DNA from: a virus
DNA: 64,000 nt
Virus record (IMG/VR): IMGVR_UViG_3300044844_000506
Location: 1-64,000 of that record
Direction: 5' to 3' (one strand)
In this document: one piece after another, positions 1 to 57,864 of the stretch
Position numbering within the stretch: position 1 is the stretch's first letter
Layout: each line of letters starts with the position of its first letter
The notes under the pieces: generated by a model
What the model saw: only the letters and a program-made list of their open reading frames with translations
Databases searched by the model: none
Told to the model about the DNA's origin: nothing
Translations under genes and position numbers: made by a program

Positions 1-127
1 ACTAATAATCGAACTAATAATCGAACTAATAATCGAACTAATAATCGAACTAATAATCGAACTAATAATCGAACTAATAATCGAACTAATAATCGAACTA
101 ATAATCGAACTAATAATCGAACTAATA
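1..127. repeat. Tandem array of the 12-bp unit ACTAATAATCGA (10 full copies plus a partial; may continue beyond the window)
   Basis: Exact 12-nt periodicity over 1-120. Two degenerate inverted copies (TTGATTATTAGT/G) follow at 143-166. Confidence 0.97.
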
Positions 128-338
128 GTTGGCAAATAATAGTTGATTATTAGTTTGATTATTAGGGGAAATAGTTAGTCGATTGTGTGGGACTGATTAT
201 CTTATAGGGAATAAATTGTGAAAACCCCAGATTTAGCCCCCCCTATCAAAAATGAGATTAGAGTATTGGGTAATAAATTATAAAATCCCATTTTTATGCC
301 CCCCTATCAAAAAATAGAATAGTGGTAATAAATACAAA

Positions 339-4052: not shown

Positions 4053-4235
4053 TTAGTTTCCCATTTCAATTGTGTGAACAATGTAACGACGAGAATCATG
4101 TACCAAATCACGAATCTCCAAATCTCCGTTTTCGAGAAATTGGAATGCTTCCTTATTCAAAATCAAAATCTTGCATCCTTCAACTCCAGAATAAGTGCTG
4201 CCGTCATTGAGTACCATAATCGCAAAGGTTTCCAT
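4053..4235 (-). CDS. Hypothetical cassette protein
   Basis: GGAG RBS is supplied by repeat copy 1. Confidence 0.65.
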   Translation of the reverse strand: METFAIMVLNDGSTYSGVEGCKILILNKEAFQFLENGDLEIRDLVHDSRRYIVHTIEMGN

Positions 4236-4360
4236 TTCAATCTCCCAAAAGAGGTAAACAAGTCTCTATCCAATAAAAAAAGCCACGCGGATTTTATCCG
4301 CATGGCTTTATTACGATTTTCAAATGGCGTGCCGAGGCCGATAAATAATGATGTTTTACA
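4236..4360 (-). repeat. Intergenic repeat copy 1 (promoter-like motif + hairpin/U-tract + RBS)
   Basis: About 110-bp element nearly identical to 4616-4737 and 5103-5222. Confidence 0.92.
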
Positions 4361-4615
4361 TCACATGGTCATTTCCTTGAACTCTTCTTCATTGATGATT
4401 TCACAAGAAATGGCTTTTGCGTTATCGAACTTTGTGACCTTGATAAAATCGTTCACATGATCAAAGATCCAGAATCTTCCGTCTAGAAAATCCATACTCT
4501 TCAACTTGTTCGAAGAAAGATTGTAAGTCCAAACTTGCAGCAGTTGATTATTTTCGTGAACATAAACTTCGAACTCGTTACGTTCTTCCAGAAAAATAAT
4601 GTCGTGCTTGATCAT
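4361..4615 (-). CDS. Hypothetical cassette protein
   Basis: Fills the space between repeat copies 1 and 2; AGGAG RBS. Confidence 0.7.
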   Translation of the reverse strand: MIKHDIIFLEERNEFEVYVHENNQLLQVWTYNLSSNKLKSMDFLDGRFWIFDHVNDFIKVTKFDNAKAISCEIINEEEFKEMTM

Positions 4616-4737
4616 TTCAATCTCCTAAAATGGTTTGGCAAGTCTCTATCCAATAAAAAAAGCCACACGGATAAAATCCGCATGGCTTTATTACGATTTT
4701 CAAATGGCGTGCCGAGGCCGATAAAGGATGTTTTACA
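4616..4737 (-). repeat. Intergenic repeat copy 2 (hairpin centre inverted)
   Basis: Same element, with GGATAAAATCC in place of GGATTTTATCC. Confidence 0.92.
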
Positions 4738-5094: not shown

Positions 5095-5102
5095 TGTTAG
5101 TG

Positions 5103-5222
5103 CAATCTCCTAAAATGGTTTGGCAAGTCTCTATCCAATAAAAAAAGCCACGCGGATTTTATCCGCATGGCTTTTGTTACGATTTTTTAAATGGCGTGCC
5201 GAGGCCGATAAAGTGTTTTAGT
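5103..5222 (-). repeat. Intergenic repeat copy 3
   Basis: Same element as copies 1 and 2. Confidence 0.92.
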
Positions 5223-5462
5223 TTACATTTGCACCCTCATTTCAGGGTAAATGATTACAGCCAAAACATCATCGAGATACTCCGTCTTTCGGACGGAAAT
5301 CTGAAGAAAAGGTCCGCAGAAGTCTTGAGGAAGAACTTGTCGAGCTTGGAAATACTCGACAGTACCTTTCCAAACATTCTTTCTGTTAGCAACCTTCCCA
5401 GTAATGATCCATTCGAAACCATCAATGGGAACAACTTCTTCGACAATGTTAGGTGCCATCAT
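5223..5462 (-). CDS. Hypothetical protein, first gene after GC-rich element A
   Basis: AGGA RBS; ends at repeat copy 3. Confidence 0.6.
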   Translation of the reverse strand: MMAPNIVEEVVPIDGFEWIITGKVANRKNVWKGTVEYFQARQVLPQDFCGPFLQISVRKTEYLDDVLAVIIYPEMRVQM

Positions 5463-5515: not shown

Positions 5516-5636
5516 GGGTCGTATTCCGCGCTCCAACGTGACAGGAAAGCGTGGAAAGTGCGTAAGTACTTGCGTCGCAAGTACTTACGCACGCGCGCGG
5601 CGCGCGCGCCTAACATCGGCCTAACGGGTGCGAAAA
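5516..5636 (-). promoter_or_regulatory. GC-rich element A: putative ECF-type promoter (TGTCAC-N16-CGAC) + 35-bp palindrome + CG run
   Basis: 5516-5552 is 36/37 identical to 12683-12719. Perfect inverted repeat at 5558-5592. Confidence 0.65.
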
Positions 5637-11950: not shown

Positions 11951-12036
11951 GCTATCCCCAGAAACTCAATAATGTTTCATATTGAGTTTCTGGACGCACT
12001 GAGCTTAGTAGCCTATTTATACTCGCTCAGTCGAGT
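11951..12036 (-). ncRNA. Pistol self-cleaving ribozyme
   Basis: P1 ACTCG/CGAGT; loop ACTGAG pairs with CTCAGT (pseudoknot); ATAAATAG linker; P2 GCTA/TAGC; CTAAG; conserved GCG; long P3; scissile dinucleotide G-A at 11956/11955. Confidence 0.88.
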
Positions 12037-12041
12037 GCAAA

Positions 12042-12548
12042 TCATTCTTCGTCGGAATCCTTGGAAGAACCAACACGTTCTGCACTAATTGACTTGTAAG
12101 CAGCGAGAGAATTCTCGTAAACATTCTTCAGACGGTGATATTCATCGTCTTCAATGTTGGTAGCAACAATGAGATCTTCATCAATAATAACATCTTCAAG
12201 AGCGAGAGATGCAATCCGATCATTGATCGAAGTGATCAGACCAGAATAGTTCTTGGAAGTGTAGTTGATAAAATCGTAACGAGCTTGAAGCATTGACAGC
12301 TTCGCACTGGTGCAACGAATCTTATAATTCAATCCAAGAGTCGAGTTACCGAGAAGAACAGAAGTCTTGTTCTTTTCAGTGATCAGCTTGTTCTTTGCTT
12401 CGAACAGAGGCTGAAGTTCTTCACGATTAACAGCATTGTTGAGCTTTTCCTTATCGGAGAGCTTCTTGATGCGTTCTTCCAGTTCAGCACGAATCTGTTC
12501 AGGGGAACGCTTGTTGTATTGACGCTTAGGTTCAGAAAAGGTTGTCAT
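12042..12548 (-). CDS. Coiled-coil hypothetical protein, first gene after element B
   Basis: 168-aa helical ORF. Confidence 0.75.
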   Translation of the reverse strand: MTTFSEPKRQYNKRSPEQIRAELEERIKKLSDKEKLNNAVNREELQPLFEAKNKLITEKNKTSVLLGNSTLGLNYKIRCTSAKLSMLQARYDFINYTSKNYSGLITSINDRIASLALEDVIIDEDLIVATNIEDDEYHRLKNVYENSLAAYKSISAERVGSSKDSDEE

Positions 12549-12682: not shown

Positions 12683-12803
12683 GGGTCGTACTCCGCGCTC
12701 CAACGTGACAGGAAAGCGTAGGAGTTTTGCGAGCGCACGCAAGTGCATGATGCACAAGGACTTATGCACGCGCACGGCGCGCTCGTTAGCCCGTCGTTAG
12801 GTC
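12683..12803 (-). promoter_or_regulatory. GC-rich element B: putative ECF-type promoter + degenerate palindrome + CG run
   Basis: Homologous to element A. CAAGT-GC-ATG-N5-CAA-GG-ACTTA at 12740-12764. Confidence 0.65.
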
Positions 12804-14236
12804 GCGGACCTGCCTAGCTTTTTTTCACTATTAACTACTGAGAAAGAAAGTTTGTTGTTGACTACTGTAAAACGAACAAAGTCTTTCGCAGAGATAGTCT
12901 TTTCTAAGATTGCAGAAGCAAGTGGGACACCAACATTGTTCTGAATAAATCTTCTAATGTTTCTTGCACCAAACTTAGAACAGTCTGCGTTATCTAAAAT
13001 ATAATCAATTAGATCTGGAGTGGGAATTACATTGTATTTTGGATTTAGTTCCAGCTTAGTAATCTTTTCCAAATCTTTTCTAGTCAAATCATTGACTACA
13101 AAGATGGCATCTAGACGATTTAGAAACTCCATTCTAAACCTGTTTTCTAGCCCCCCTATAATTTCTGATTCGGTCTGGGTAGTAACTTTAATATCTTTTA
13201 CTAGACCGATGATGTCATCTGCTTTTTTATAATGAATAGATTCATTTGAAGTAAAGATGAACAATGATTCTTTGAAATCAAGGTCTTTACCGGAAGCATC
13301 TTTAATTACACCCTTGTCTAACAAATTAAGTAAGGCATCGAACAACTTATCATCTGCCTTTTCAATTTCATCAAAAATAAAGACATGAGCATTAGATTCC
13401 TCAGCCTTTTGGGCTAGAAGACTAGGTTCATTAGATCCCACATAACCTGGAGGAGAACCTAATAGGGTTGATTTCTCATGCTTATCAGACATTGCACCAC
13501 AAGGGATTTTTACAACTCTTCCATTGTAGTACTTTTCTGCAATACATTCAGCAAGATAAGTCTTTCCTCGTCCAGTCTTGCCGACAAAGAAGAAAGAGAG
13601 ATAATCTGCAAATCCTGCCTCCTTCAGCTTAAGGTGATCAATAACTTTATTGATAGTATTGTCTTGTCCAATAACCTTTAAGTGGAGGTAATTCTTTAAT
13701 TCGTTGATTCGTCTGATGGAGGGATTTCGTTTTTTTGACTTTTTGACCCCACCCAAATTTTTTTCATCGTCTCCGAATTCGATGACGTTGAGAGTATTTC
13801 CATTTTGATCCATTTTAACGCTAATACTCTTCATCTCAGGATTCACCAATTGATGAATCTTGAAATTCATAATACCACAGATCTGTTCTAAACTAAACTG
13901 AGGATAAACTTTTGTGATCTCACGGTACAGGACACCGTAAATCTTACTTTCTTCCTTCTTGGAAAGTTCACTACCCTCAGGCAAAGATGCTTCAATATCT
14001 GAAATAATCTCGTCCAAGTTCTCTAGTAAGTCTTTTACTAGCCACTTCTTGTAAATGTCTACATCAAGGTTCTTACCCATTGAGATGATCATTTCTGTGA
14101 TCTTCTTCTGGATTTCACCTTGATGTATTAACTTGATAACTTTAATTACTAATACTGATTTTAATTCTTTGCAGACAATTCTGTAGTTGTTATTCATCTG
14201 AGTCGAAGTCTTCGAAGTTAAATGATGTTGTGTCAT
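12797..14236 (-). CDS. ClpA/ClpB-type AAA+ ATPase (second nucleotide-binding domain only)
   Basis: VIGQD, GKTGRGKT, GSPPGYVG, IFDEIEKA, FTSN, EFLNRLD, GARNIRR. Confidence 0.9.
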   Translation of the reverse strand: MTQHHLTSKTSTQMNNNYRIVCKELKSVLVIKVIKLIHQGEIQKKITEMIISMGKNLDVDIYKKWLVKDLLENLDEIISDIEASLPEGSELSKKEESKIYGVLYREITKVYPQFSLEQICGIMNFKIHQLVNPEMKSISVKMDQNGNTLNVIEFGDDEKNLGGVKKSKKRNPSIRRINELKNYLHLKVIGQDNTINKVIDHLKLKEAGFADYLSFFFVGKTGRGKTYLAECIAEKYYNGRVVKIPCGAMSDKHEKSTLLGSPPGYVGSNEPSLLAQKAEESNAHVFIFDEIEKADDKLFDALLNLLDKGVIKDASGKDLDFKESLFIFTSNESIHYKKADDIIGLVKDIKVTTQTESEIIGGLENRFRMEFLNRLDAIFVVNDLTRKDLEKITKLELNPKYNVIPTPDLIDYILDNADCSKFGARNIRRFIQNNVGVPLASAILEKTISAKDFVRFTVVNNKLSFSVVNSEKKLGRSAT

Positions 14237-25033: not shown

Positions 25034-25225
25034 TTAATACCACTCCATAATAGACTTCTGAAGGCTAATTATATCGGAATCCATCACTTTTATTATTTGT
25101 TCTAGCTTGTTTATTTCGGCTAGGTGGTCCTCATATTTAACCCACTTTCCAGTATCGCTTTCTTGTTCTTCCACTTGGCAGTCATTACAGAATCTATCTA
25201 ATTCGTGATTGTATCTTTTAATCAT
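25034..25225 (-). CDS. Hypothetical protein (GxWVKYED motif)
   Basis: AGGAG RBS. Confidence 0.65.
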   Translation of the reverse strand: MIKRYNHELDRFCNDCQVEEQESDTGKWVKYEDHLAEINKLEQIIKVMDSDIISLQKSIMEWY

Positions 25226-25356
25226 GTTTTCTCCTGCACTATGTCCTCTTCACCATAGCCATCGCCATAGCCAGAGCCAGAGCCAGAGCCATAGCCAGAG
25301 CCAGAGCCATAGCCATAGCCAGAGCCATAGCCAGAGCCAGAGCCATCACGGCTCAT
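25222..25356 (-). CDS. Gly-rich (GS/GY/GD)n micro-protein, copy 2, 44 aa
   Basis: Not in the ORF track. MSRDGSGSGYG...GEEDIVQEKT; GAGG RBS. Confidence 0.55.
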   Translation of the reverse strand: MSRDGSGSGYGSGYGYGSGSGYGSGSGSGYGDGYGEEDIVQEKT

Positions 25357-25367
25357 TTGTCCTCTAA

Positions 25368-25547
25368 TCAATTGCTCTTGCATTGCACTATGTCCTCTTT
25401 ACCATCGCCATAGCCATAGCCATCGCCATAGCCATAGCCATAGCCATCGCCATCGCCATAGCCAGAGCCATAGCTAGAGCCATAGCCATAGCCATAACCA
25501 TAGCCATAGCCAGAGCCAGAGCCAGAGCCAGAGCCTTTACGGCTCAT
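25368..25547 (-). CDS. Gly-rich (GS/GY/GD)n micro-protein, copy 1
   Basis: MSRKGSGS...GKEDIVQCKSN, built from hexamer repeats. Confidence 0.6.
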   Translation of the reverse strand: MSRKGSGSGSGSGYGYGYGYGYGSSYGSGYGDGDGYGYGYGDGYGYGDGKEDIVQCKSN

Positions 25548-39173: not shown

Positions 39174-39527
39174 ATGGCGCAGTATATAGACAATAAAAGG
39201 TTTGAGTTTTTAGTTAGTTCTTACATATATGAAAGAACTGACAAAATCGAGGCAGAGCTTATAGAAAATCTGGACAAGCTGATAGATAATATCTTCTTGT
39301 CCTTTAATTTTAAGATAGACCACGAAGATGCGAAGCAAGATTGTTATTTGTTAATCTTCCGCGTAATGCGGAACTTTAAACCAGAAAACGGTAGTGCGTT
39401 TAATTACTTCACTACCGTTATCGTAAACAATCTAAGGTTACTGTACACTAAGAATAAAATCTATGCACAGAAACTAGAAAACTACATGAATATAAAATCC
39501 AACGATAAAGATTTACTTACAAGTTGA
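39174..39527 (+). CDS. gp55-like late sigma factor
   Basis: YIDNK, D..QD, NFKPE..SAFNYFT; region 2 only. Confidence 0.8.
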   Translation: MAQYIDNKRFEFLVSSYIYERTDKIEAELIENLDKLIDNIFLSFNFKIDHEDAKQDCYLLIFRVMRNFKPENGSAFNYFTTVIVNNLRLLYTKNKIYAQKLENYMNIKSNDKDLLTS

Positions 39528-46204: not shown

Positions 46205-46594
46205 TTACTTTACGCCTTTACGAGCTTTTTTTCCAGCTTTTCTACCTGCTCGAAGAGCAAATCTATGTTGATGCATATCTTTATTACGAGTTTTTCTAAG
46301 TAATTCTTGTTCAGAGGTATCTATATCTGGAGAAGCTCTTAATCTTGCAACAAACTCTTCTGGAGCACCAGGAAATTCAGGATACCTAGGCGATAATGGT
46401 CTTGTACCTGAACCAGTTGTTTTCTTACCTCTACTAGAACGATGTACTGATTGTCTACCTGGCTCACTTAGAGCTAATCTGTTTTGTCTAATTAGTTTTT
46501 TTGCTCTTGTACTTAGACCTTTATCTACTTTAGCCTCTAATAGATTACCTAAATCAAGCGATTCGTAGAGTAATATTTTACCTGCTGTTATCAT
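46205..46594 (-). CDS. Basic putative internal head protein
   Basis: LLYE/LLE leader followed by a K/R-rich body. Confidence 0.55.
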   Translation of the reverse strand: MITAGKILLYESLDLGNLLEAKVDKGLSTRAKKLIRQNRLALSEPGRQSVHRSSRGKKTTGSGTRPLSPRYPEFPGAPEEFVARLRASPDIDTSEQELLRKTRNKDMHQHRFALRAGRKAGKKARKGVK

Positions 46595-49086: not shown

Positions 49087-49212
49087 TTACCCTTTACTAG
49101 CTAAATAAGCTCTCAATGCCTTCTTAAATTTTTTACCAGCAACTATATTCCTAGGTCTTTCCTCAAGAAGAAGTCGTTCGATTAATAATTTTAATCTAAC
49201 TTTATAATTCAT
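49087..49212 (-). CDS. 41-aa basic peptide with LLLEE leader (not in the ORF track)
   Basis: MNYKVRLKLLIERLLLEERPRNIVAGKKFKKALRAYLASKG. Confidence 0.5.
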   Translation of the reverse strand: MNYKVRLKLLIERLLLEERPRNIVAGKKFKKALRAYLASKG

Positions 49213-49592: not shown

Positions 49593-51128
49593 TTAGACTA
49601 AGTTACCAATTGTCTTTCTGAAAGGCTGGTAGAGGTAGTTGCTGCTGGGACCGATGATTCTAAGAATTCTATAGAACTTAGCTTCGGGAGCGATTGCTAA
49701 CATACCGTAACGAGTCATGATACCCTTACGAGGTTGGAATGTAGCAGGATCAACTACTGTGGGGAGGTTCTCAATTGGGATGTAAGGAGCGTAAACGAAT
49801 CCTGTATCCATTGGACCAGAACCCTTATAACCCATGAGGATTTCGTCTTCGGGCCAGAGTGGGTCGATGTAAAGATCGAACTTACCACCGAGCTTGCCCT
49901 TGAACTGAATCTGAGTACCCATGTTTGATGGACCTTCAACCTTGGAACCACCATTACCACCCATACCACCACCGAGTTGAGCGGCAGTTTCGAGCATTGC
50001 ACCAATGAGTGGTGAGGTAACAATCCAAGTACCAGGACCACGATGAGTGGTCTTGAAGATGTCCTGTGACATGAGATTTAATGTTGCCCACATATTCGAC
50101 CAAACATGACCGATGTGTTGTGGGCTAAAAGGTATTGCTGAAGATGTGAAGTCAATTACCCATACGTTCGTACCTGCACCTGAGGGGTTAGTTACACCAG
50201 TGATACCACCAGTGGTATTGTTGTAATCCCACATGAACTTAGCAGGATTGAAGGTATCTGCACCACCAGTGTTGCCGATTGACTGGCTATTAGCTAAGTC
50301 TAGTGCATTTCTGTACCAACCACCTAAGCCGTTAGCAATGTTGCTATCGTAAGCAATACCACGGAGGTTTTCGAGAAGCTCACGGTCGATTTCGAGACGG
50401 AGTTCGTTACCCATGAGTTCAGTGAGTTCCTGTTCAAGATCAAGGTTGTGATAAGCCTTGAGATCCTGTGAAGCCTCAATTGTCCAGAGGGTACGCATCT
50501 TACGGGTACGAGCAACAACTGGCTGCTGTTCGATTGTAAGGTTTACTTCTGGAATAGCTGAACCTGAGAGGAATTCACCTGCTGAAATGCTGAAACCATG
50601 AGTTCTATCTGTTAGAGGCCAAGCAGCAATCTTACCACCGAATGTGGTCGAGGCTGAACCTCTTGTAGCACCATAAATAGTGCTCAATTGAACGTCATCA
50701 TCACCATCGGCACTATTAGCACCTACTGGGTTAGTTGTTAAACCACCGTAGGTTAACTGGTACTTGCTATAGACACCTTCTCTTGCTACACCGTATTGAC
50801 GGCCAGAGCCAAGGTAGAATACCTGACCAACTGGACCCTGCATGGGCTGCTGAGAAACTATTGCGTTTGCAATTAGCTGAGGGTAAACTCTACGGATTAG
50901 AGGGAATGCAAACTTCTGGAAGGTTCCAATTGAACCTGTTGAAGTTGCACCTTCAAAACCTGCTACGTTAGTTTCATCAATTCTCTTTGACTTCTCAAGA
51001 AGAATTGCCTTTGCTTGGTTCTCATAAAGAGTAGCTACGACTTTGCGAGTGTAAGAGTCATCAATGCCTTTTAATGCGGCACCCCACTTACCTACAAGGT
51101 CTTCGCCATTTTCAATTAATTCGCTCAT
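49593..51128 (-). CDS. Major capsid protein (gp23-like)
   Basis: LYENQ, PLIRRV, QPMQGPVG, ARTRKMR..WTIEA.QDLKAYH, EIDRE, YAPYIP, FQPRKGIMTRYG. Confidence 0.97.
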   Translation of the reverse strand: MSELIENGEDLVGKWGAALKGIDDSYTRKVVATLYENQAKAILLEKSKRIDETNVAGFEGATSTGSIGTFQKFAFPLIRRVYPQLIANAIVSQQPMQGPVGQVFYLGSGRQYGVAREGVYSKYQLTYGGLTTNPVGANSADGDDDVQLSTIYGATRGSASTTFGGKIAAWPLTDRTHGFSISAGEFLSGSAIPEVNLTIEQQPVVARTRKMRTLWTIEASQDLKAYHNLDLEQELTELMGNELRLEIDRELLENLRGIAYDSNIANGLGGWYRNALDLANSQSIGNTGGADTFNPAKFMWDYNNTTGGITGVTNPSGAGTNVWVIDFTSSAIPFSPQHIGHVWSNMWATLNLMSQDIFKTTHRGPGTWIVTSPLIGAMLETAAQLGGGMGGNGGSKVEGPSNMGTQIQFKGKLGGKFDLYIDPLWPEDEILMGYKGSGPMDTGFVYAPYIPIENLPTVVDPATFQPRKGIMTRYGMLAIAPEAKFYRILRIIGPSSNYLYQPFRKTIGNLV

Positions 51129-51139
51129 AATTTTTTATC

Positions 51140-51766
51140 CTATTTATTAGGCATCAATGCCATTACATTCTCGTTGAGGAATGGATTAGAACGATCTAAT
51201 CCGAATTGTTCATCCTTAATTTGTTCCTCTGCAAGAATTAAGGCTTTTTCACTGGACTTAAACGGTCTTCGTGTATCGAGAAGTTCCTCAACTTGCTCAG
51301 TTAAAGGAACTAATTGTTCTTCTAAAGTTGAGGCAGTCTTCTTGTACTTACCTGCTAACTTTCTGTACTTTTCTAATTCTGGAACTAAATTATTTAATTG
51401 TTCAATTAAAATCTGATTTTCTTCAATGAGAGAATCTATCTGCTCATTTACTTCAGCTTCAGCTTCTAACTCTTGGTCATCTAATTCAATAGAATCTTCT
51501 AATCCTAATAAAGACTTAAGTTTACGGAATTGAGCAGCATCTCTGTGGAGATCACTTTCGTCCTCTAATTCCTTCTCAGCTTGTTCTTTTAATAGGTCTA
51601 TGTTGCCTCTAATAAAAGCTACTGTTTTAGCTTCTAATAGTTTTACTCTTTGTGTTACTTCCTCATTAATAAAACCTGAAATGAGGGTAGCTATTTCGTC
51701 TAAGCTATCCTCACTTAAATTATCGGGAAGAAGATCACTTAATTTATCTAATTTATTTGCGTTCAT
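51140..51766 (-). CDS. Prohead scaffold (gp22-like)
   Basis: Acidic coiled coil directly upstream of the capsid gene. Confidence 0.8.
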   Translation of the reverse strand: MNANKLDKLSDLLPDNLSEDSLDEIATLISGFINEEVTQRVKLLEAKTVAFIRGNIDLLKEQAEKELEDESDLHRDAAQFRKLKSLLGLEDSIELDDQELEAEAEVNEQIDSLIEENQILIEQLNNLVPELEKYRKLAGKYKKTASTLEEQLVPLTEQVEELLDTRRPFKSSEKALILAEEQIKDEQFGLDRSNPFLNENVMALMPNK

Positions 51767-51780
51767 AGTTTACCTATCTG

Positions 51781-51788
51781 TATTTATT
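51781..51788 (-). promoter_or_regulatory. Late-promoter-like AATAAATA
   Basis: About 15 nt upstream of the scaffold start. Confidence 0.45.
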
Positions 51789-51826
51789 CTAGCTAACTTT
51801 ATTTAAAGATTTTTTTTATTTTTTGT

Positions 51827-52849
51827 TTAAGAGTCTTCAAATTCACTAAGATGACCTCTTAACTGTTGTAAACTTCGATGTAACGATTGCCTAACTGTAT
51901 CAGGATTACTATTTAAAACTTTTGCTATTTGTATTGTATCATACCCTTTTAAATAATATAATTTAACTATGTTTTGTTGTGTTGGATTTAGTCTTGAGAT
52001 AGCTTTACCCAATTTAGCTCTAACTTCTGATCCAGCTATTCCAGAAGATGGATCTTCATATTCTTTAGGTCCAGAAATAGTAGATCCAAATTCTTTTTCA
52101 GTACCTGCTATAGGAGCATTTAATGAGCCTCCCTCTTTAGATCTAGCTCTTTTTTCTTGTGTATGATATCGTAAAGCATCTCCTACTCTAGCGTTTATAA
52201 TTTTAGATAAAAATCTAGGAAAAGATTCAACATTAAAATCTAGTTTTTCTAAATTTTGAAACCCTTCTTCAAATGCTTGTTGAACTATATCTTCAGCAGA
52301 TACCTTTGATTGAAGACTACCTAACCTACTTCTAGCAAATGCAATTAACTTTTTACTATGTTTATTAAATAGTTTATTAGTTGAATCTTCATCGCCTAAG
52401 CTGTGAGCCTGAAGTAATTCATGATCTTCTTTGTCATGAGGAACATTTCTTTGTGCCGCTTTAGCAGCTTCTTTATCAGCTATTGCTTTTTTAACTACCT
52501 TTTCTGGAATGTCTTCAGATGGTGTTTCTGATTTAGGTTTTACTTTTTTAGGTGGAAGTTCTAATGGTACTTTCCAGTAGTCATCACTTTTATCTTTTTG
52601 ATCTTCTGATTTCGGCTCTTTTTGTTCTGGCTTCTTAATTACTGGGGTAGCTGTAGGTTTTTCAACTTTAGGAGTAACTTTAGGTTCTTTAGTCTTTGGA
52701 GTAGGTTTTTTAGAAACAATCTTAGGTTTTTCTTTTTTAGGTAGAGGTTCTATTGGTTCTTCAATATCTTCTCCCTCATCTTCTTCAAGAAGAAACTCTT
52801 GAATTAAATGAATTGAATTTTCGTCTAAGATATTTTTAAAACTAATCAT
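51827..52849 (-). CDS. ECF sigma-70 factor with an N-terminal acidic leader and P/K/E-rich linker
   Basis: Region 2: LL.A...GDE.....LF......L..FAR.RL....K.SAEDIVQ..F...F..FL..I....V.D..R.H...KR. Region 4: AISRL...QQ.IV.LYY..G....QIA.VL....TVR..L.R.L.QLR. Confidence 0.88.
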   Translation of the reverse strand: MISFKNILDENSIHLIQEFLLEEDEGEDIEEPIEPLPKKEKPKIVSKKPTPKTKEPKVTPKVEKPTATPVIKKPEQKEPKSEDQKDKSDDYWKVPLELPPKKVKPKSETPSEDIPEKVVKKAIADKEAAKAAQRNVPHDKEDHELLQAHSLGDEDSTNKLFNKHSKKLIAFARSRLGSLQSKVSAEDIVQQAFEEGFQNLEKLDFNVESFPRFLSKIINARVGDALRYHTQEKRARSKEGGSLNAPIAGTEKEFGSTISGPKEYEDPSSGIAGSEVRAKLGKAISRLNPTQQNIVKLYYLKGYDTIQIAKVLNSNPDTVRQSLHRSLQQLRGHLSEFEDS

Positions 52850-52850
52850 A

Positions 52851-54017
52851 CTAACAATTCCACTTTCTTAAAGCCTTGTTAATTCTGCTGTTAGGATCAT
52901 TGGCTGTTTTTGATGAGGTACGACTTCTTTTCATTCCACCCATACGAGCGCAGAATGATTTACGTCTCTTAGCAGATTTGCTGCCCTTTTTTAATTTAGA
53001 TGGATCTGTAGTTACAGCAGTCTTTAATTTAGAACCAGGATTAGCTCTGCGGTATGCTTCAACTCCTTTTTGAGTTAAACCACCAGCTCTGCTTTTATGT
53101 ACACCCATTTTCATTTTGGGCATTACACCTTTACCTTCTACTAAAATGTTTTTTATGAGTTTGGTATAGGCTTCTACTAAATCTGCTTTAGATTTAACAT
53201 CCATTACACATCTTTCAAATTTTTTAGGATCTCTTCCTTTACCAAGAGAAGCATTACACACTGCCCAAGGGTTTACTTTAGATGTGCGTTTAGCTTCATT
53301 AACAGGTTTACTAGGAACACAATTAGGTACTTTTCTCTTACCCTTCATCTTCATACCTACTTGCTGATATCCTTTCCAGCAAGGATCTTTCTTTTCAAAG
53401 ATTTTAGAGATTCTATCATCCTTAACTGTATTTAATCTGGATTCAAGTAAGTTTAGTAATACCTTATTATTTAATGCAGCCTTTTTTGTTTTTTCTAGTA
53501 ACACAGACTCATTTACTTGAGATGGATGAGCACCTCTTGTTGAAGGATCCGCAACTAAATCAAATGTTACCGCACGGAAATCTTCATTAACTTCAAATTT
53601 GCCTGGAGAATCTTGACATGGCTTTAATGATCCAAGACCTCTACTGGAAACACCAATTCGTACTCCGTCCTTAATTAACTGTTGAGCTACTTTACCAGCA
53701 GGAGTATTTAATAGTTGAGATTCCCCTATTAAAACATCTCCTTGCCAGTATAGCTTAGTTACCATGTGTGATGCGTTAGTTAATTTAACTGTTGGACTAT
53801 CTGGGTGATCTAATTCACCTAAAAGTCTATTTTCAGTTACTAATGGCATTAATCTGGTAACTTCTCTTTCTAAAATTGGTTTTGGGTAGCGTCTGTTATT
53901 CTTATTGAATTCTCCAGCACGACCAAAGATACCTCTAATCTTAATAGTACCAGACTCTGTAGACTCTGATATTACTTGAACTGGATCTAATCTAAAGTAA
54001 TCAATAAGTAATTCCAT
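52851..54017 (-). CDS. Prohead protease (gp21-like) with multi-module C-terminal extension
   Basis: NxNxRxYP, GELDHP, SH, TPAG, GVSSRGLGS, TFDLVADPS. Confidence 0.93.
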   Translation of the reverse strand: MELLIDYFRLDPVQVISESTESGTIKIRGIFGRAGEFNKNNRRYPKPILEREVTRLMPLVTENRLLGELDHPDSPTVKLTNASHMVTKLYWQGDVLIGESQLLNTPAGKVAQQLIKDGVRIGVSSRGLGSLKPCQDSPGKFEVNEDFRAVTFDLVADPSTRGAHPSQVNESVLLEKTKKAALNNKVLLNLLESRLNTVKDDRISKIFEKKDPCWKGYQQVGMKMKGKRKVPNCVPSKPVNEAKRTSKVNPWAVCNASLGKGRDPKKFERCVMDVKSKADLVEAYTKLIKNILVEGKGVMPKMKMGVHKSRAGGLTQKGVEAYRRANPGSKLKTAVTTDPSKLKKGSKSAKRRKSFCARMGGMKRSRTSSKTANDPNSRINKALRKWNC

Positions 54018-54045: not shown

Positions 54046-54288
54046 TTATGCACCATAAAATGGTCTGCGTCTAATTGTAGCTCCAGTCGGACCTTTTTTT
54101 GGATTTCCTTCTATAAATTTCTGAAATGCAGAAGGCTTTGGAGATTGTGGTTTTTTAGGTTTATCTCCTTTTTTATGATGTGGTAATGATGCAAATTCTC
54201 CTTTACCAGATCTAGGATCGTCTGAAGGATAATTAGCTTCAGCTAAAAGTAAATCATAAATATAGTCAAAATAATTTATTTTATTCAT
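54046..54288 (-). CDS. Basic putative internal head protein
   Basis: YIYDLLLAEA leader; P/K-rich body. Confidence 0.6.
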   Translation of the reverse strand: MNKINYFDYIYDLLLAEANYPSDDPRSGKGEFASLPHHKKGDKPKKPQSPKPSAFQKFIEGNPKKGPTGATIRRRPFYGA

Positions 54289-54317
54289 AGGTTAACTTTC
54301 CCAAAGTAATTCTATAA

Positions 54318-55349
54318 TTATTCCTCCCAAGATTCTTCTTTATCTTTCTTGGCTCTCTCTCTTTCCATTTCTGATTGATAAGCCGCAGTAAGTTCAGCAG
54401 ATTTCCCACCTTTAGCCTTAGCAGCAGCCGCTATTTCTTTAGATCGTAAATCTTGTAAAGCACGCTTTTTACGATCTCTTTCTGCTTGTTTTATAGCAGC
54501 GACGCCAGTTTTCTTGGGTTTTACTTTAGAAGAAACTACTTTACCATGTTTGTCTATTTCAATTGGAGTCATTCCACCTGATGCACTTAGTTTATGACCT
54601 AACTGCTTTTCAGCAGACGATAGTCTCTTTCTTCTTGATTCCAATGCCTTCTTTCGTCTACTTAATCTTGTTTCAGCCTCTTTTTCCATTTTAGGAAACT
54701 CTGAGGGACTGGCTTCTCTATAAGCCTGTCTAGCTTTTTTAAGTTCTTGTGCTTTTGCAGCTAAATCACCTTTAGCTCTAGCTGTTCCAGCACCTTTTTC
54801 TCCAGGTTTTAATAACTTATCTTCTGTAGCTTCCTTATGTGCTTTTAATGCATCTCTTAATCTTTGTCTTGTTTTTTCAGATGCAGAAGAATATGCGTCT
54901 ATTCTAGCTTTTCTACCTGCTGCTACTGCCTCTCGTCTCTTACGTCTTAATGATCCCTTCTTAGCTTTAGGATCAGAAGCTAATTTTGTTTTAGCTTCTT
55001 CTGCCTTAGATTTTTTAGACTGGTATTCCTCTCGTTTTTTTCTAATTGCTCTTAATTTAGCTTGCTCTCTTGATAGTTTTCTTTCGTGACCAGATACTCT
55101 TCTAGTAGATAGTCTAAGACCTTTTTCTACTTCTGACTCATAGGTATCCTCTGTTTGTCTTGGTTTTTTATATGATTGTTCACTTTCTTTTTGAGATAGA
55201 GGTTTATCTTTTTTTAAAGCCTCTGCTGCTTTTATATTATGTTTACGTCTTTCTGATCTTACTCCAAACTGTTTTTCTTTAATTGCATCTATCTCTTTTT
55301 GACTAAGTTCTAAAAGTAAAGAAGCAATGCTATTATATGTATTGTTCAT
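54318..55349 (-). CDS. Highly basic putative internal head protein
   Basis: YNSIASLLLE leader; K/R/A-rich body. Confidence 0.65.
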   Translation of the reverse strand: MNNTYNSIASLLLELSQKEIDAIKEKQFGVRSERRKHNIKAAEALKKDKPLSQKESEQSYKKPRQTEDTYESEVEKGLRLSTRRVSGHERKLSREQAKLRAIRKKREEYQSKKSKAEEAKTKLASDPKAKKGSLRRKRREAVAAGRKARIDAYSSASEKTRQRLRDALKAHKEATEDKLLKPGEKGAGTARAKGDLAAKAQELKKARQAYREASPSEFPKMEKEAETRLSRRKKALESRRKRLSSAEKQLGHKLSASGGMTPIEIDKHGKVVSSKVKPKKTGVAAIKQAERDRKKRALQDLRSKEIAAAAKAKGGKSAELTAAYQSEMERERAKKDKEESWEE

Positions 55350-55351
55350 GT

Positions 55352-55741
55352 TTAATAACCTTTTCTAGTTATTTTTTTCTTTTTAGCTTTAACTTTAGGA
55401 GTTCCTCCCATATTAGTTCCGATACTCCCGCAAGTGGTCATTTCATCAATAAGGTTTTTAGCTTCTTGAATTAAATGCATTAACTTTTTAACGTATACTT
55501 CAGGATTAACTGTCTGATTGGATTCTCTTACGACAGGAGAAACTTTTTTAGTTGTCTTCTCACCAAATGAATGTTCTAATATAGTATTAGTATACGAATG
55601 AGGAACTGTTACCTTAGATATATCAGGAGCATTAGGTCTTATAATACCTTGGGGAGTCGAAACAAGTTTTCCTTGTTTCGACTCACTTTTAAGTATTGAT
55701 TCTGCTATATTAGCTATATCAAAATCTTTTTGCTTAGGCAT
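55352..55741 (-). CDS. Putative prohead core protein
   Basis: Several I/L-x-E sites; basic tail. Confidence 0.55.
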   Translation of the reverse strand: MPKQKDFDIANIAESILKSESKQGKLVSTPQGIIRPNAPDISKVTVPHSYTNTILEHSFGEKTTKKVSPVVRESNQTVNPEVYVKKLMHLIQEAKNLIDEMTTCGSIGTNMGGTPKVKAKKKKITRKGY

Positions 55742-55746
55742 AAAAA

Positions 55747-56625
55747 TTATCTTCGTGTAACTGGAGAAGCTCCAGTCATTAGATTTTTAAGAGTTCCGTG
55801 TAATCCACCTAAGTTAACCTTTGCTAATGCTTTAGATCTTTGTGGATTACTATGTTGACCAAATTCACTTACACCTTTTTTAAATTTAGGAGAAATGGCT
55901 CCACCTATTTTAGCTGCAACACCAGCGAGTTTACTTCCGCCATGACGAGCAGCGCCGACTCTTCTACCAGCTTTTTCCATAGCACTAACTTCAACTAGTA
56001 AATGAGCAATTTGTACATATGTCTCGTTCATTGGTTCGCCTTCTATTTCATTGTGTGTAAATCTCATGCCAACTCTCTTATATCTTTCTTCGGTTGCTTT
56101 ACGTTTTTCTGGATCAATAAAAGTTTGTGCTTTTTGTCCTGGAGCCGTCTGCTTTTTAAAATAACCTAAAGCTGTATTTTGCTTCTTACCCTTACTTTTT
56201 GTGATTTGAGCCTGTGTTGGTTGTGAACTCAATGTACCTGCTCTACCATGCATTAATCTATTTGTTTGGCGAGCTTTTAATAGGTCAGCATATGCTTTAT
56301 TTCTGCCTTTCTCATCTTTACCTCTTACAGCTTTACCATAAGCCTTAACAGCTTCACCGTGCTTCATTTTTGCACCTTTTTGTAACTGCGCTTGTTTCCA
56401 TTGGCCTCCCTTAGATCTTAAGGCAGAACCAATCTTCTTCATTCCCCCACCAACCATACCCTTTAATGCGGTTAAAAACTCTTGTAATAATTCCTCGTCT
56501 TCTAAGAGAATAGGAATGAGTTCTTGCTGGTGATCAAGAGGAACACCTTCTTCTGTGAGAAGAGCACTTAAATTTCTTTTCTCTTCTTCTAATAGAAGAG
56601 ATTCTTTAATTATGGAATAATACAT
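55747..56625 (-). CDS. Putative internal head polyprotein
   Basis: SLLLEE leader; internal YVQIAHLLVE; G/K-rich modules. Confidence 0.6.
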   Translation of the reverse strand: MYYSIIKESLLLEEEKRNLSALLTEEGVPLDHQQELIPILLEDEELLQEFLTALKGMVGGGMKKIGSALRSKGGQWKQAQLQKGAKMKHGEAVKAYGKAVRGKDEKGRNKAYADLLKARQTNRLMHGRAGTLSSQPTQAQITKSKGKKQNTALGYFKKQTAPGQKAQTFIDPEKRKATEERYKRVGMRFTHNEIEGEPMNETYVQIAHLLVEVSAMEKAGRRVGAARHGGSKLAGVAAKIGGAISPKFKKGVSEFGQHSNPQRSKALAKVNLGGLHGTLKNLMTGASPVTRR

Positions 56626-56631
56626 GGGGTA

Positions 56632-56985
56632 TTACTCCTCGTCTTCGTCTTCAGATTCTTCGTCGTACTCTTCTTCGTCGTACTCTTCACCATCGTCTTC
56701 TGATTCTTCTTCTGATTCTTCATCTGAATCGTCTTCTTCAGACTCTTCTAATGATTCATTTAGAGTATCTTCAACAGCAGTGAATACTTCTAACATAGCT
56801 GCGCTGTGCTCTAATAAAGCCTCTTCGCTGATTGGTTCAGCGAGATTTGATTGGCATAGAGGACAAACATGAGCTTCTGTTACGGGAGCCTGATCTGAGC
56901 ATTCAGTTAATGCGTCTTTTTCAGTGGGTAGCCAGCTTGCACCCTCAGTAATAGCCTTTACATAATTTTTAGAAACGTGTGACAT
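56632..56985 (-). CDS. Acidic putative prohead core protein with CPLC
   Basis: AAGGAG RBS; D/E-rich tail. Confidence 0.6.
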   Translation of the reverse strand: MSHVSKNYVKAITEGASWLPTEKDALTECSDQAPVTEAHVCPLCQSNLAEPISEEALLEHSAAMLEVFTAVEDTLNESLEESEEDDSDEESEEESEDDGEEYDEEEYDEESEDEDEE

Positions 56986-57066: not shown

Positions 57067-57864
57067 TTAAGTACAGTCAAATGATCGTATAGTACCACCT
57101 TGGTTGCCAAAATAAATAGGTCTTGATGCTGTACTTAAATAAAATGTTACTATTGTAGGACGTTCAAAGTATTCAGAAACGTAATTATTAACTGTAATAA
57201 CATGAACACTACTTAAATAAAAGTTAGTTACATCCCCAGTTAAAGTTATAACTCCAGTATTTAAATCTATTTTATATGGATAGGGGAAAGGGGGATCAAC
57301 ACTCATTATTTTAGGTATAGTTTCATCTTTAATGTCTTTTCCAGTATCTTCCTCTTTAATTGGAGTATAGTATTCTGGAACTACTGCTAATCTTCCAACA
57401 GAAGATAGCCATGATTCGACATAAATTTTATTACAAGTTTGATATGTAATTAAATCAAGACTGTTAAGTTTATAATCTAAAACAGGAAGTCCAACGGTAT
57501 AACCGATAGTGTTTTCAGGATCTTGTATATCTGTATATGCGTTAGCAGATTGACTCTGAGATACGGATACACCTTCATCTATCAATACATCTGTAGATCC
57601 ATTATCACCTACATCTCCACATGAGATTTTATCTCCGTCTCTATGAATCCCTTTTCCATTAGCAAAAACTGTAGTAGATCCACCTAACACTGGACCCATT
57701 TGATGACAAGCTGGACCACAACAATGAGTTTGACCATAATTATCATCTATTCTAACAACAGGCTTATCATTAACAAAAACGTCTGGGGAACCATTTACTG
57801 AGAATGTTGGAGAGTAGCAGTGTCCCTGAGACACATCAGTTAAAGCTCTTATTGGTCTTGGCAT
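57067..57864 (-). CDS. PAAR spike-tip protein (gp5.4-like) with C-terminal extension
   Basis: GHC..P....GSPDVFVN.KPV.R, H.C....H, GS.TVFANG...R.GD...CG. Confidence 0.88.
   Translation of the reverse strand: MPRPIRALTDVSQGHCYSPTFSVNGSPDVFVNDKPVVRIDDNYGQTHCCGPACHQMGPVLGGSTTVFANGKGIHRDGDKISCGDVGDNGSTDVLIDEGVSVSQSQSANAYTDIQDPENTIGYTVGLPVLDYKLNSLDLITYQTCNKIYVESWLSSVGRLAVVPEYYTPIKEEDTGKDIKDETIPKIMSVDPPFPYPYKIDLNTGVITLTGDVTNFYLSSVHVITVNNYVSEYFERPTIVTFYLSTASRPIYFGNQGGTIRSFDCT

Follow-up and report, generated by a model that had tools for sequence, protein, structure and literature searches.

Phages are known to secure early transcription in two ways, either by relying on the host holoenzyme or by injecting an RNA polymerase of their own. 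The question raised by the locus described here is why a gene for a sigma factor lies within an operon for the prohead core, and whether its product might be carried in the capsid to the next host. The window, i.e. the whole stretch of DNA analysed, was the first 64 kb (64,000 nucleotides) of a complete virus record of 111,612 bp in IMG/VR (IMGVR_UViG_3300044844_000506). Nearly all genes of this genome were oriented on the minus strand. The capsid protein was only 26-35% identical to its counterparts in RM378, XacN1 and KVP40; hence, the virus was regarded as a far-T4 phage without a cultured close relative.

The position of the sigma gene between the protease and scaffold genes, as claimed in the preliminary description, was established by the identity of its neighbours. 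The following features were recorded in and around the head-core operon:

51827..52849, minus strand: ECF-type sigma factor gene with an N-terminal extension, 340 aa
52851..54017, minus strand: gp21-like prohead protease (Peptidase_S77) fused to a C-terminal DUF6321 module
51767..51826, minus strand: intergenic region before the scaffold gene, with a late-type AATAAATA (51788-51781)
51140..51766, minus strand: coiled-coil scaffold-like protein in the gp22 position
49593..51128, minus strand: major capsid protein, Gp23 family
54046..56985, minus strand: five upstream genes of the head-core operon, without family matches
49087..49212, minus strand: 41-aa ORF with a leader (NYKVRLKLLIE...LLLE) and a basic tail
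46205..46594, minus strand: basic cassette protein of 129 aa, missing in the sister phage

The protease was recognized by PF03420 (87.7 bits) and phrog_207 (E 7e-50). Its DUF6321 module was placed behind an internal leader-like ...ILVE site, and looks like another leader-tagged head cargo. Unfused DUF6321 genes were found in two relatives: that of L006 (5909-6331) begins with the leader MFILLKTLLLE, and that of L003 (770-1267) starts with, or is preceded by, FYSEVAELLLE. Among the five upstream genes, four encode strongly basic proteins and one (56632) an acidic protein (38% acidic residues). Leaders of the form aromatic-x2-I/L-x2-LL-hydrophobic-E were present on the basic proteins 54046, 54318 and 55747 and missing from 55352; the acidic protein begins with NYVKAITE. 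The portal and terminase were encoded away from this operon, at 102.9-106.4 kb. Directly upstream of the operon, a 265-aa protein with a PAAR motif was encoded (window 57067-57864, minus strand), the L006 version of which is 105 aa long.

The sigma gene itself was divided as follows (all minus strand):

52820..52849, codons 1-10: T4-CTS-like (capsid-targeting) decapeptide MISFKNILDE, with F4, I7, L8 and E10
52781..52822, codons 10-23: predicted amphipathic helix with FLLEE at its end (AlphaFold2, low pLDDT)
52445..52780, codons 24-135: acidic run, then a Lys/Pro-rich linker (K 24%, P 16%)
52133..52441, residues 137-239: sigma2 domain (Pfam, AlphaFold2, Foldseek)
51833..52051, residues 267-339: sigma4 domain (Pfam, AlphaFold2)

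It was confirmed that the product of 51827-52849 is a true ECF sigma factor. In the Pfam search, Sigma70_r2 (PF04542) matched residues 160-229 with 34.8 bits (cut-off 24), Sigma70_r4_2 (PF08281) matched residues 279-330 with 39.8 bits (cut-off 25.7), PF04545 scored 31.5 bits (cut-off 24.1) and Sigma70_ECF was also above its cut-off. The NCBIfam model TIGR02937 was passed with 83.7 bits against a cut-off of 42.9. An AlphaFold2 model, built from an alignment of 76 sequences, had a pLDDT above 90 for sigma2 (137-239) and sigma4 (267-339), which were separated by a gap of approximately 27 residues. The best PDB matches of this model found by Foldseek were the ECF sigmas SigW, sigmaE, AlgU, SigK and SigH. 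The protein had the ECF fold and neither sigma3 nor sigma1.1, as is characteristic of ECF (group 4) sigmas. Region 2.2 retained the conserved D187 and Q190, and the conserved Trp of region 2.3 was replaced by Phe213. Hence, the complete region 2 and region 4 reported earlier were borne out by Pfam, TIGR02937, AlphaFold2 and Foldseek alike, and the structure prediction, with its matches to SigW, sigmaE and AlgU, yielded the sigma fold. The likeness to planctomycete-type ECF sigmas (TIGR02984, Planctomycete-specific ECF subfamily 1) did not hold as membership: the score of 74.3 bits was below the required 183.75, thus this subfamily is a resemblance only. No other protein encoded in the whole 111.6-kb genome combined sigma2 and sigma4, and none of the others carried sigma4.

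The N-terminal extension was concluded to belong to the protein, since M1 was the single Met of its 340 residues and the ATG was located one base past the stop codon of the protease gene. The same spacing suggested that translation is probably coupled to that of the upstream gene. Residues 1-115 were of low confidence in the AlphaFold2 model except for a helix at 10-22, in agreement with the earlier claim of a roughly 110-aa disordered stretch ahead of the sigma domain. The linker was disordered to about residue 115, followed by a helix at 116-134, and was mildly basic (24% Lys, net charge +4). The GC content and codon make-up of the gene were phage-like.

Judged by its sequence, the sigma is almost an orphan. 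In an exhaustive HMMER search of 1.84 billion representatives, residues 1-135 had no homologue, and the nearest non-self match of the whole protein was obtained at E = 7e-15 with 31% identity. The closest relatives were ordinary cellular ECF sigmas of about 200 aa with 25-31% identity, the one named match being from Pirellulaceae/Planctomycetales. A word-indexed search of 5.8 billion proteins returned the sigma itself alone, tblastn against 50,697 phage records gave zero matches, and neither the sigma nor P0057 yielded a relative in scans of IMG/VR. P0057 and the 68%-identical P0151 shared the build of our sigma, namely a leader, an acidic Glu/Pro run, a short Lys-rich stretch and an ECF domain; the linker of this sister allele was strongly acidic.

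The gene for P0151 was located on a 14.6-kb contig of a sister phage (L003, the contig of L004 and L005 as well), where the order of protease, sigma, scaffold, capsid, neck, sheath and tube genes was that of our phage. Most structural proteins of the two phages were 76-91% identical and those flanking the sigma 81-91%, and the sigmas were 31% identical. The DNA homology between the phages (~78%, blastn) ended at 52852 and restarted at 51825, i.e. at the borders of the sigma ORF, and no homology was detectable by blastn between the two sigma genes. The only other break in this homology was found at 46205-46594, a gene for a basic protein with a leader, which is missing from the sister phage. 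The sigma gene is thus a precise exchangeable cassette between the protease and scaffold genes. In a more distant relative (L006/L007), with a capsid protein 83% identical to ours, the same slot was filled by a very basic 334-aa protein with a leader and a second internal leader; 14 of 21 residues of its leader matched the leader of our 46205 protein. No ECF sigma was found in the slot or anywhere in the 44-kb fragment of this relative; likewise, in 25 gp23 phages of greater distance (L008-L032), none lay closer than 8 kb to the capsid gene. The synteny of the slot, which the preliminary description had left to be checked, was therefore traced to a 31%-identical sigma in one relative and a leader-tagged basic protein in another. 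T4 internal proteins are diverse, and their capsid-targeting sequence (CTS) alone is conserved (PMC3012670). The protease-scaffold slot behaves like these internal-protein loci of T-even phages, in which payloads vary and the targeting signal is retained (PMC3012670; PMC9026906). In a free tree the two phage sigma types stood apart, which would suggest two separate acquisitions; however, the tree constrained to hold them together was likelier (p-AU 0.574), so a single origin was not rejected.

Further, the leader of the sigma was compared with two kinds of signal, those of the phage itself and that of T4. A tight leader motif, T-Y-N-x-I/L-x-x-L-L-hydrophobic-E, occurred in five copies in four proteins of the phage; two copies were N-terminal in or beside the head-core operon and two were internal. 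The strict leader pattern was observed 4 times against 0.25 expected, and LL-x-E within the first 20 residues 7 times against 0.43 expected. A PSSM was built from the five tight-motif copies, on which members of the leader family scored 13-29 bits, and a broader one from 13 leaders. The five-copy PSSM also picked up leaders in related phages; together with the excess of the strict pattern, this indicated that the leader family is real. One basic protein of 423 aa, the gene for which lies well away from the head operon and on the opposite strand (genome 109261-110532, plus strand; L033 9262-10533), carried a tight leader at its N-terminus and another at residue 205, and had no Pfam match.

The N-terminus of the sigma scored -1.3 bits on the five-copy PSSM (rank 426 of 34,027) and -1.0 bits on the 13-leader PSSM (rank 641 of 34,305). 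A Smith-Waterman comparison of its residues 1-26 with other N-termini gave no excess over the shuffled null. Membership of the sigma in the tight leader family of the phage was therefore rejected, and the likeness to the leaders of neighbouring head proteins noted in the preliminary description received no statistical support. The sister sigma alleles ranked 4 of 3,253 within L003, and 56 or 569 on the broad PSSM.

The other half of that claim, a leader of capsid-targeting type, fared better. The T4 capsid-targeting sequence is MKTYQEFIAE (PMC8442874), and by suppressor analysis its residues 4 and 7 serve targeting and residues 8 and 10 processing (PMC9026906). The sigma decapeptide MISFKNILDE had an aromatic residue at position 4, a hydrophobic one at 7, an aliphatic one at 8 and Glu at 10. 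Among 139 proteins, the sigma alone matched at all four positions (0.09 expected). Besides the sigma, a looser octapeptide pattern was seen N-terminally in one protein alone, 56632, from the operon of the sigma itself (2 against 0.195 expected; 13 of 1000 shuffles gave at least as many). The sister sigma begins with NYLAYVKE and was the sole N-terminal CTS-like match in its locus. Additionally, FLLEE in the sigma leader constituted a second site of the L-x-E type. The test of CTS positions was framed with the sequence already in view; hence, the apparent mimicry of the T4 signal by the start of the sigma, seen at the level of residues, is supportive rather than decisive. With such a start, the sigma may be loaded into the capsid and delivered along with the DNA.

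The genome was also examined for promoters that the sigma could serve. A GC-rich core of 32 nt, TTCCTGTCACGTT-N4-CGCGGA(A/G)TACGACCC, was present in exactly three copies, all on the coding strand, each 50-130 nt upstream of a gene and with shared similarity further upstream:

5516..5547, minus strand: element A, GC-rich TTCCTGTCACGTT-N4-CGCGGAATACGACCC, ~50 nt upstream of gene 5223-5462
12683..12714, minus strand: element B, core as in A, upstream of gene 12042-12548
genome 111316-111347, minus strand: element C, third copy, outside the window

The elements read TGTCAC-N16-CGAC, which is near the promoter signature of ECF41 sigmas, TGTCACA-n16-CGTC (PMC3426412), with a -10 of CGAC instead of CGTC. 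Written as TGTCACG-N15-CGAC, they share with ECF41 promoters a bipartite build, the -35 hexamer and the spacing class of 16 +/- 1. The phage sigma ends at the close of sigma4 and lacks the C-terminal regulatory extension of about 100 aa found in ECF41; it is therefore not an ECF41 sigma.

Behind element A lie small genes, between which a terminator unit recurs three times. Element B is followed by gene 12042-12548, a pistol ribozyme and three tRNAs, as well as a series of small orphan genes. Element C heads an orphan gene of 136 aa (genome 110852-111262, equal to L033 10853-11263, minus strand) with a GC content of 64% in a genome of 36%. The product of the latter had zero homologues among 5.8 billion proteins, and the gene appears to have been acquired recently from an organism of high GC. 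The blocks headed by A, B and C look early, a term used here for gene content alone, i.e. small orphans beside the genome end.

Several structures were noted around these blocks. The terminator unit, 118 nt long, lies at window 4233-4350, 4613-4730 and 5098-5215 and consists of a strong hairpin (AAAGCCATGCGGAT...) and a conserved tail. The pistol ribozyme (window 11951-12036, minus strand; Rfam RF02679, 56.1 bits against a gathering score of 34.5) directly follows gene 12042-12548 and precedes the tRNA-Leu/Arg/Lys cluster. Just upstream of element B, a ClpX/ClpB-like AAA+ ATPase is encoded (window 12797-14236, minus strand; AAA_2 E 1e-27; phrog 'ATP-dependent protease'). Both ends of the record carry a 'direct terminal repeat' of 127 bp (window 1-130, genome 111490-111612), formed by a tandem array with a 12-nt unit (plus strand: ACTAATAATCGA) that sits between the early-looking genes and element C.

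The element core was absent from every other viral contig searched. In 185,579 species, a looser pattern gave 20 scattered single hits in bacteria, which were chance-like; since no genome held more than one copy, neither a host nor a host regulon emerged. Promoters of the sigma70 type numbered 55 in the first 17.5 kb against 53.5 expected, an absence of enrichment in a count that could miss primary-sigma promoters of the host. A search for a T7-type RNA polymerase gave zero matches, with control genomes that were unable to give a signal for this family.

A promoter element of a different, late type was also present. The AATAAATA before the scaffold gene is near the T4 late consensus and was kept in all three phages regardless of the content of the slot, and [ATG]ATAAATA was enriched directly ahead of genes, where 7.5% of the sequence held 8 of its 30 copies. 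A separate candidate for a late factor was located outside the head-core operon:

39174..39527, plus strand: 117-aa candidate minimal sigma, sigma2-only and gp55-like, with a weak Sigma70_r2 match (E 0.012)

The PDB and phage searches returned weak matches only for this candidate. Its look-alikes in the Atlas were viral clusters of about 113 aa; Sigma70_r2 was present in 10-13% of these.

Based on these data, the following sequence of events was proposed. The gene would encode a working ECF-type sigma, carried as an exchangeable cassette of the prohead-core operon of this lineage. The sigma would be expressed late, alongside the gp21-like protease and translationally coupled to it. Its residues 1-10 would act as a T4-type capsid-targeting sequence, by which the protein would enter the scaffolding core, and the protease would trim it after Glu10 and/or Glu22. 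The trimmed sigma would remain in the filled head, enter the next host with the DNA and bind the host core RNA polymerase, which could then initiate at the three TGTCAC-N16-CGAC elements heading the early-looking blocks. Taken as a whole, from coupled production to action at A, B and C, this scheme is considered quite possible, albeit short of probable. Much the same holds for its central part: packaging and injection of the sigma are plausible without being the expected outcome. The fuller version, in which the injected sigma, loaded through its CTS and trimmed by the gp21-like protease, captures the host core polymerase for the three GC-rich promoters and makes both the host primary sigma and new protein synthesis dispensable for immediate-early transcription, is put forward with greater reserve and is rather doubtful. 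The scheme as a whole fits the position of the gene, the behaviour of the cassette, the decapeptide, the layout of the promoters and the conserved late promoter. The failure of the leader PSSM and of the Smith-Waterman comparison counts against it, as do the linker, which has a net charge of +4 here and is acidic in the sister, unlike T4 internal proteins, and the relative with no sigma in the slot or elsewhere in its 44-kb fragment. The CGAC in place of CGTC at -10 counts against the pairing of the sigma with the elements. Hence, the virion-delivered sigma of the preliminary description was supported in part.

An ordinary phage sigma that is never packaged is likewise quite possible, though short of probable. 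Such a protein would redirect the host RNA polymerase, within the same cell, to a limited set of promoters, which may be A, B and C, thereby favouring the tRNAs and a few accessory genes. Its N-terminal extension would have some other purpose, e.g. that of a sigma1.1-like acidic autoinhibitor or a spacer, and an acidic run does lie directly behind the leader in both alleles. All well-studied phage sigmas act in this manner, including those of Twort-like and P100-like phages and phiEco32/SU10 gp36, which is annotated as ECF; the low score of the sigma leader on the PSSM of the phage also agrees with it, and the tRNAs behind element B could serve late translation. However, the gene is coupled to a late structural operon and has no promoter element of its own type, so the sigma would arrive after the genes that it could control are needed, and the genes driven by A, B and C look early in their content. 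This explanation also leaves without a reason both the CTS-like decapeptide, which recurs in an allele without detectable DNA homology, and the cargo-type protein in the slot of the relative.

Two further roles were weighed. As a host-directed accessory gene (moron), the sigma would turn on an ECF regulon of the host or titrate its core polymerase or an anti-sigma factor. This would suit a gene that behaves like a mobile cassette and has cellular ECF sigmas as its nearest relatives. The phage-like GC content and codon make-up, the presence of three identical ECF-like elements in the phage itself and the failure to find a host regulon among the 185,579 species speak against it, and it is regarded as improbable. 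A sigma for the late structural operons would agree with the location of the gene among late genes, yet AATAAATA is kept in phages with the first allele, with the second, 31%-identical allele or with no sigma in the slot, [ATG]ATAAATA is the element enriched upstream of genes, and the GC-rich ECF-like element precedes no structural operon. The late role was rejected on the conserved AATAAATA and the [ATG]ATAAATA enrichment; with a gp55-like candidate present in addition, it is the least credible of the roles considered and very improbable. The possibility raised by the preliminary description that the sigma acts on late promoters alone was thereby examined: the late promoter did not vary with the sigma allele.

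The proposal of a packaged sigma can be set beside three groups of known systems. T4 internal proteins IPI-III (and Alt) share with the sigma an N-terminal signal of about 10 residues with key positions 4, 7, 8 and 10. Their CTS is cut by gp21, and a protease of the gp21 family (Peptidase_S77) is encoded next to the sigma; in both cases, hypervariable payloads follow conserved signals of the leader type. The T4 cargo is injected with the DNA, and the sigma would be too. In contrast to the small basic anti-restriction cargo of T4, the payload here is a two-domain transcription initiation factor, its gene lies between those of the protease and the scaffold, and a leader of about 23 residues is followed by a linker of about 90.

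T4 gp55, gp36 of phiEco32/SU10 and Sig of Twort-like phages are members of the sigma70 family that retarget the host core RNA polymerase, as our sigma would. The known phage sigmas are expressed early or in the middle of infection and act in the same cycle, and none has been described with a CTS-like N-terminus or in a prohead-core operon. Sigma peptides in virion preparations of SU10 and of a Twort-like phage were minor or judged to be carry-over (PMC5618024). The virion RNA polymerases of N4 and phiKZ and the tape-measure RNA polymerase of P23-45 are injected transcription machinery that secures early transcription, and an injected sigma would likewise do so; here, however, the specificity subunit alone would be delivered and the host core enzyme would still be used. 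Full-text literature searches found phage sigmas acting within the cycle and virion RNA polymerases and did not find a sigma described as capsid cargo, in keeping with the earlier remark that no such description was known for T4-like phages.

If the proposal is true, an injected sigma would be a third and cheaper route to early transcription, and the range of capsid cargo would extend from anti-restriction proteins and ADP-ribosyltransferases to initiation factors. The exchangeable slot would let the lineage swap sigma alleles together with their promoters, and an orthogonal sigma would become available together with its promoter as a compact and portable unit. Even for an unpackaged sigma, the prohead-core operon of far-T4 phages is shown to have precise cassette slots with leader-signalled contents. 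Apart from this operon, two adjacent small ORFs (window 25222-25547, minus strand) were observed to consist almost wholly of Gly/Ser/Tyr/Asp repeats (GSGYGYG...).
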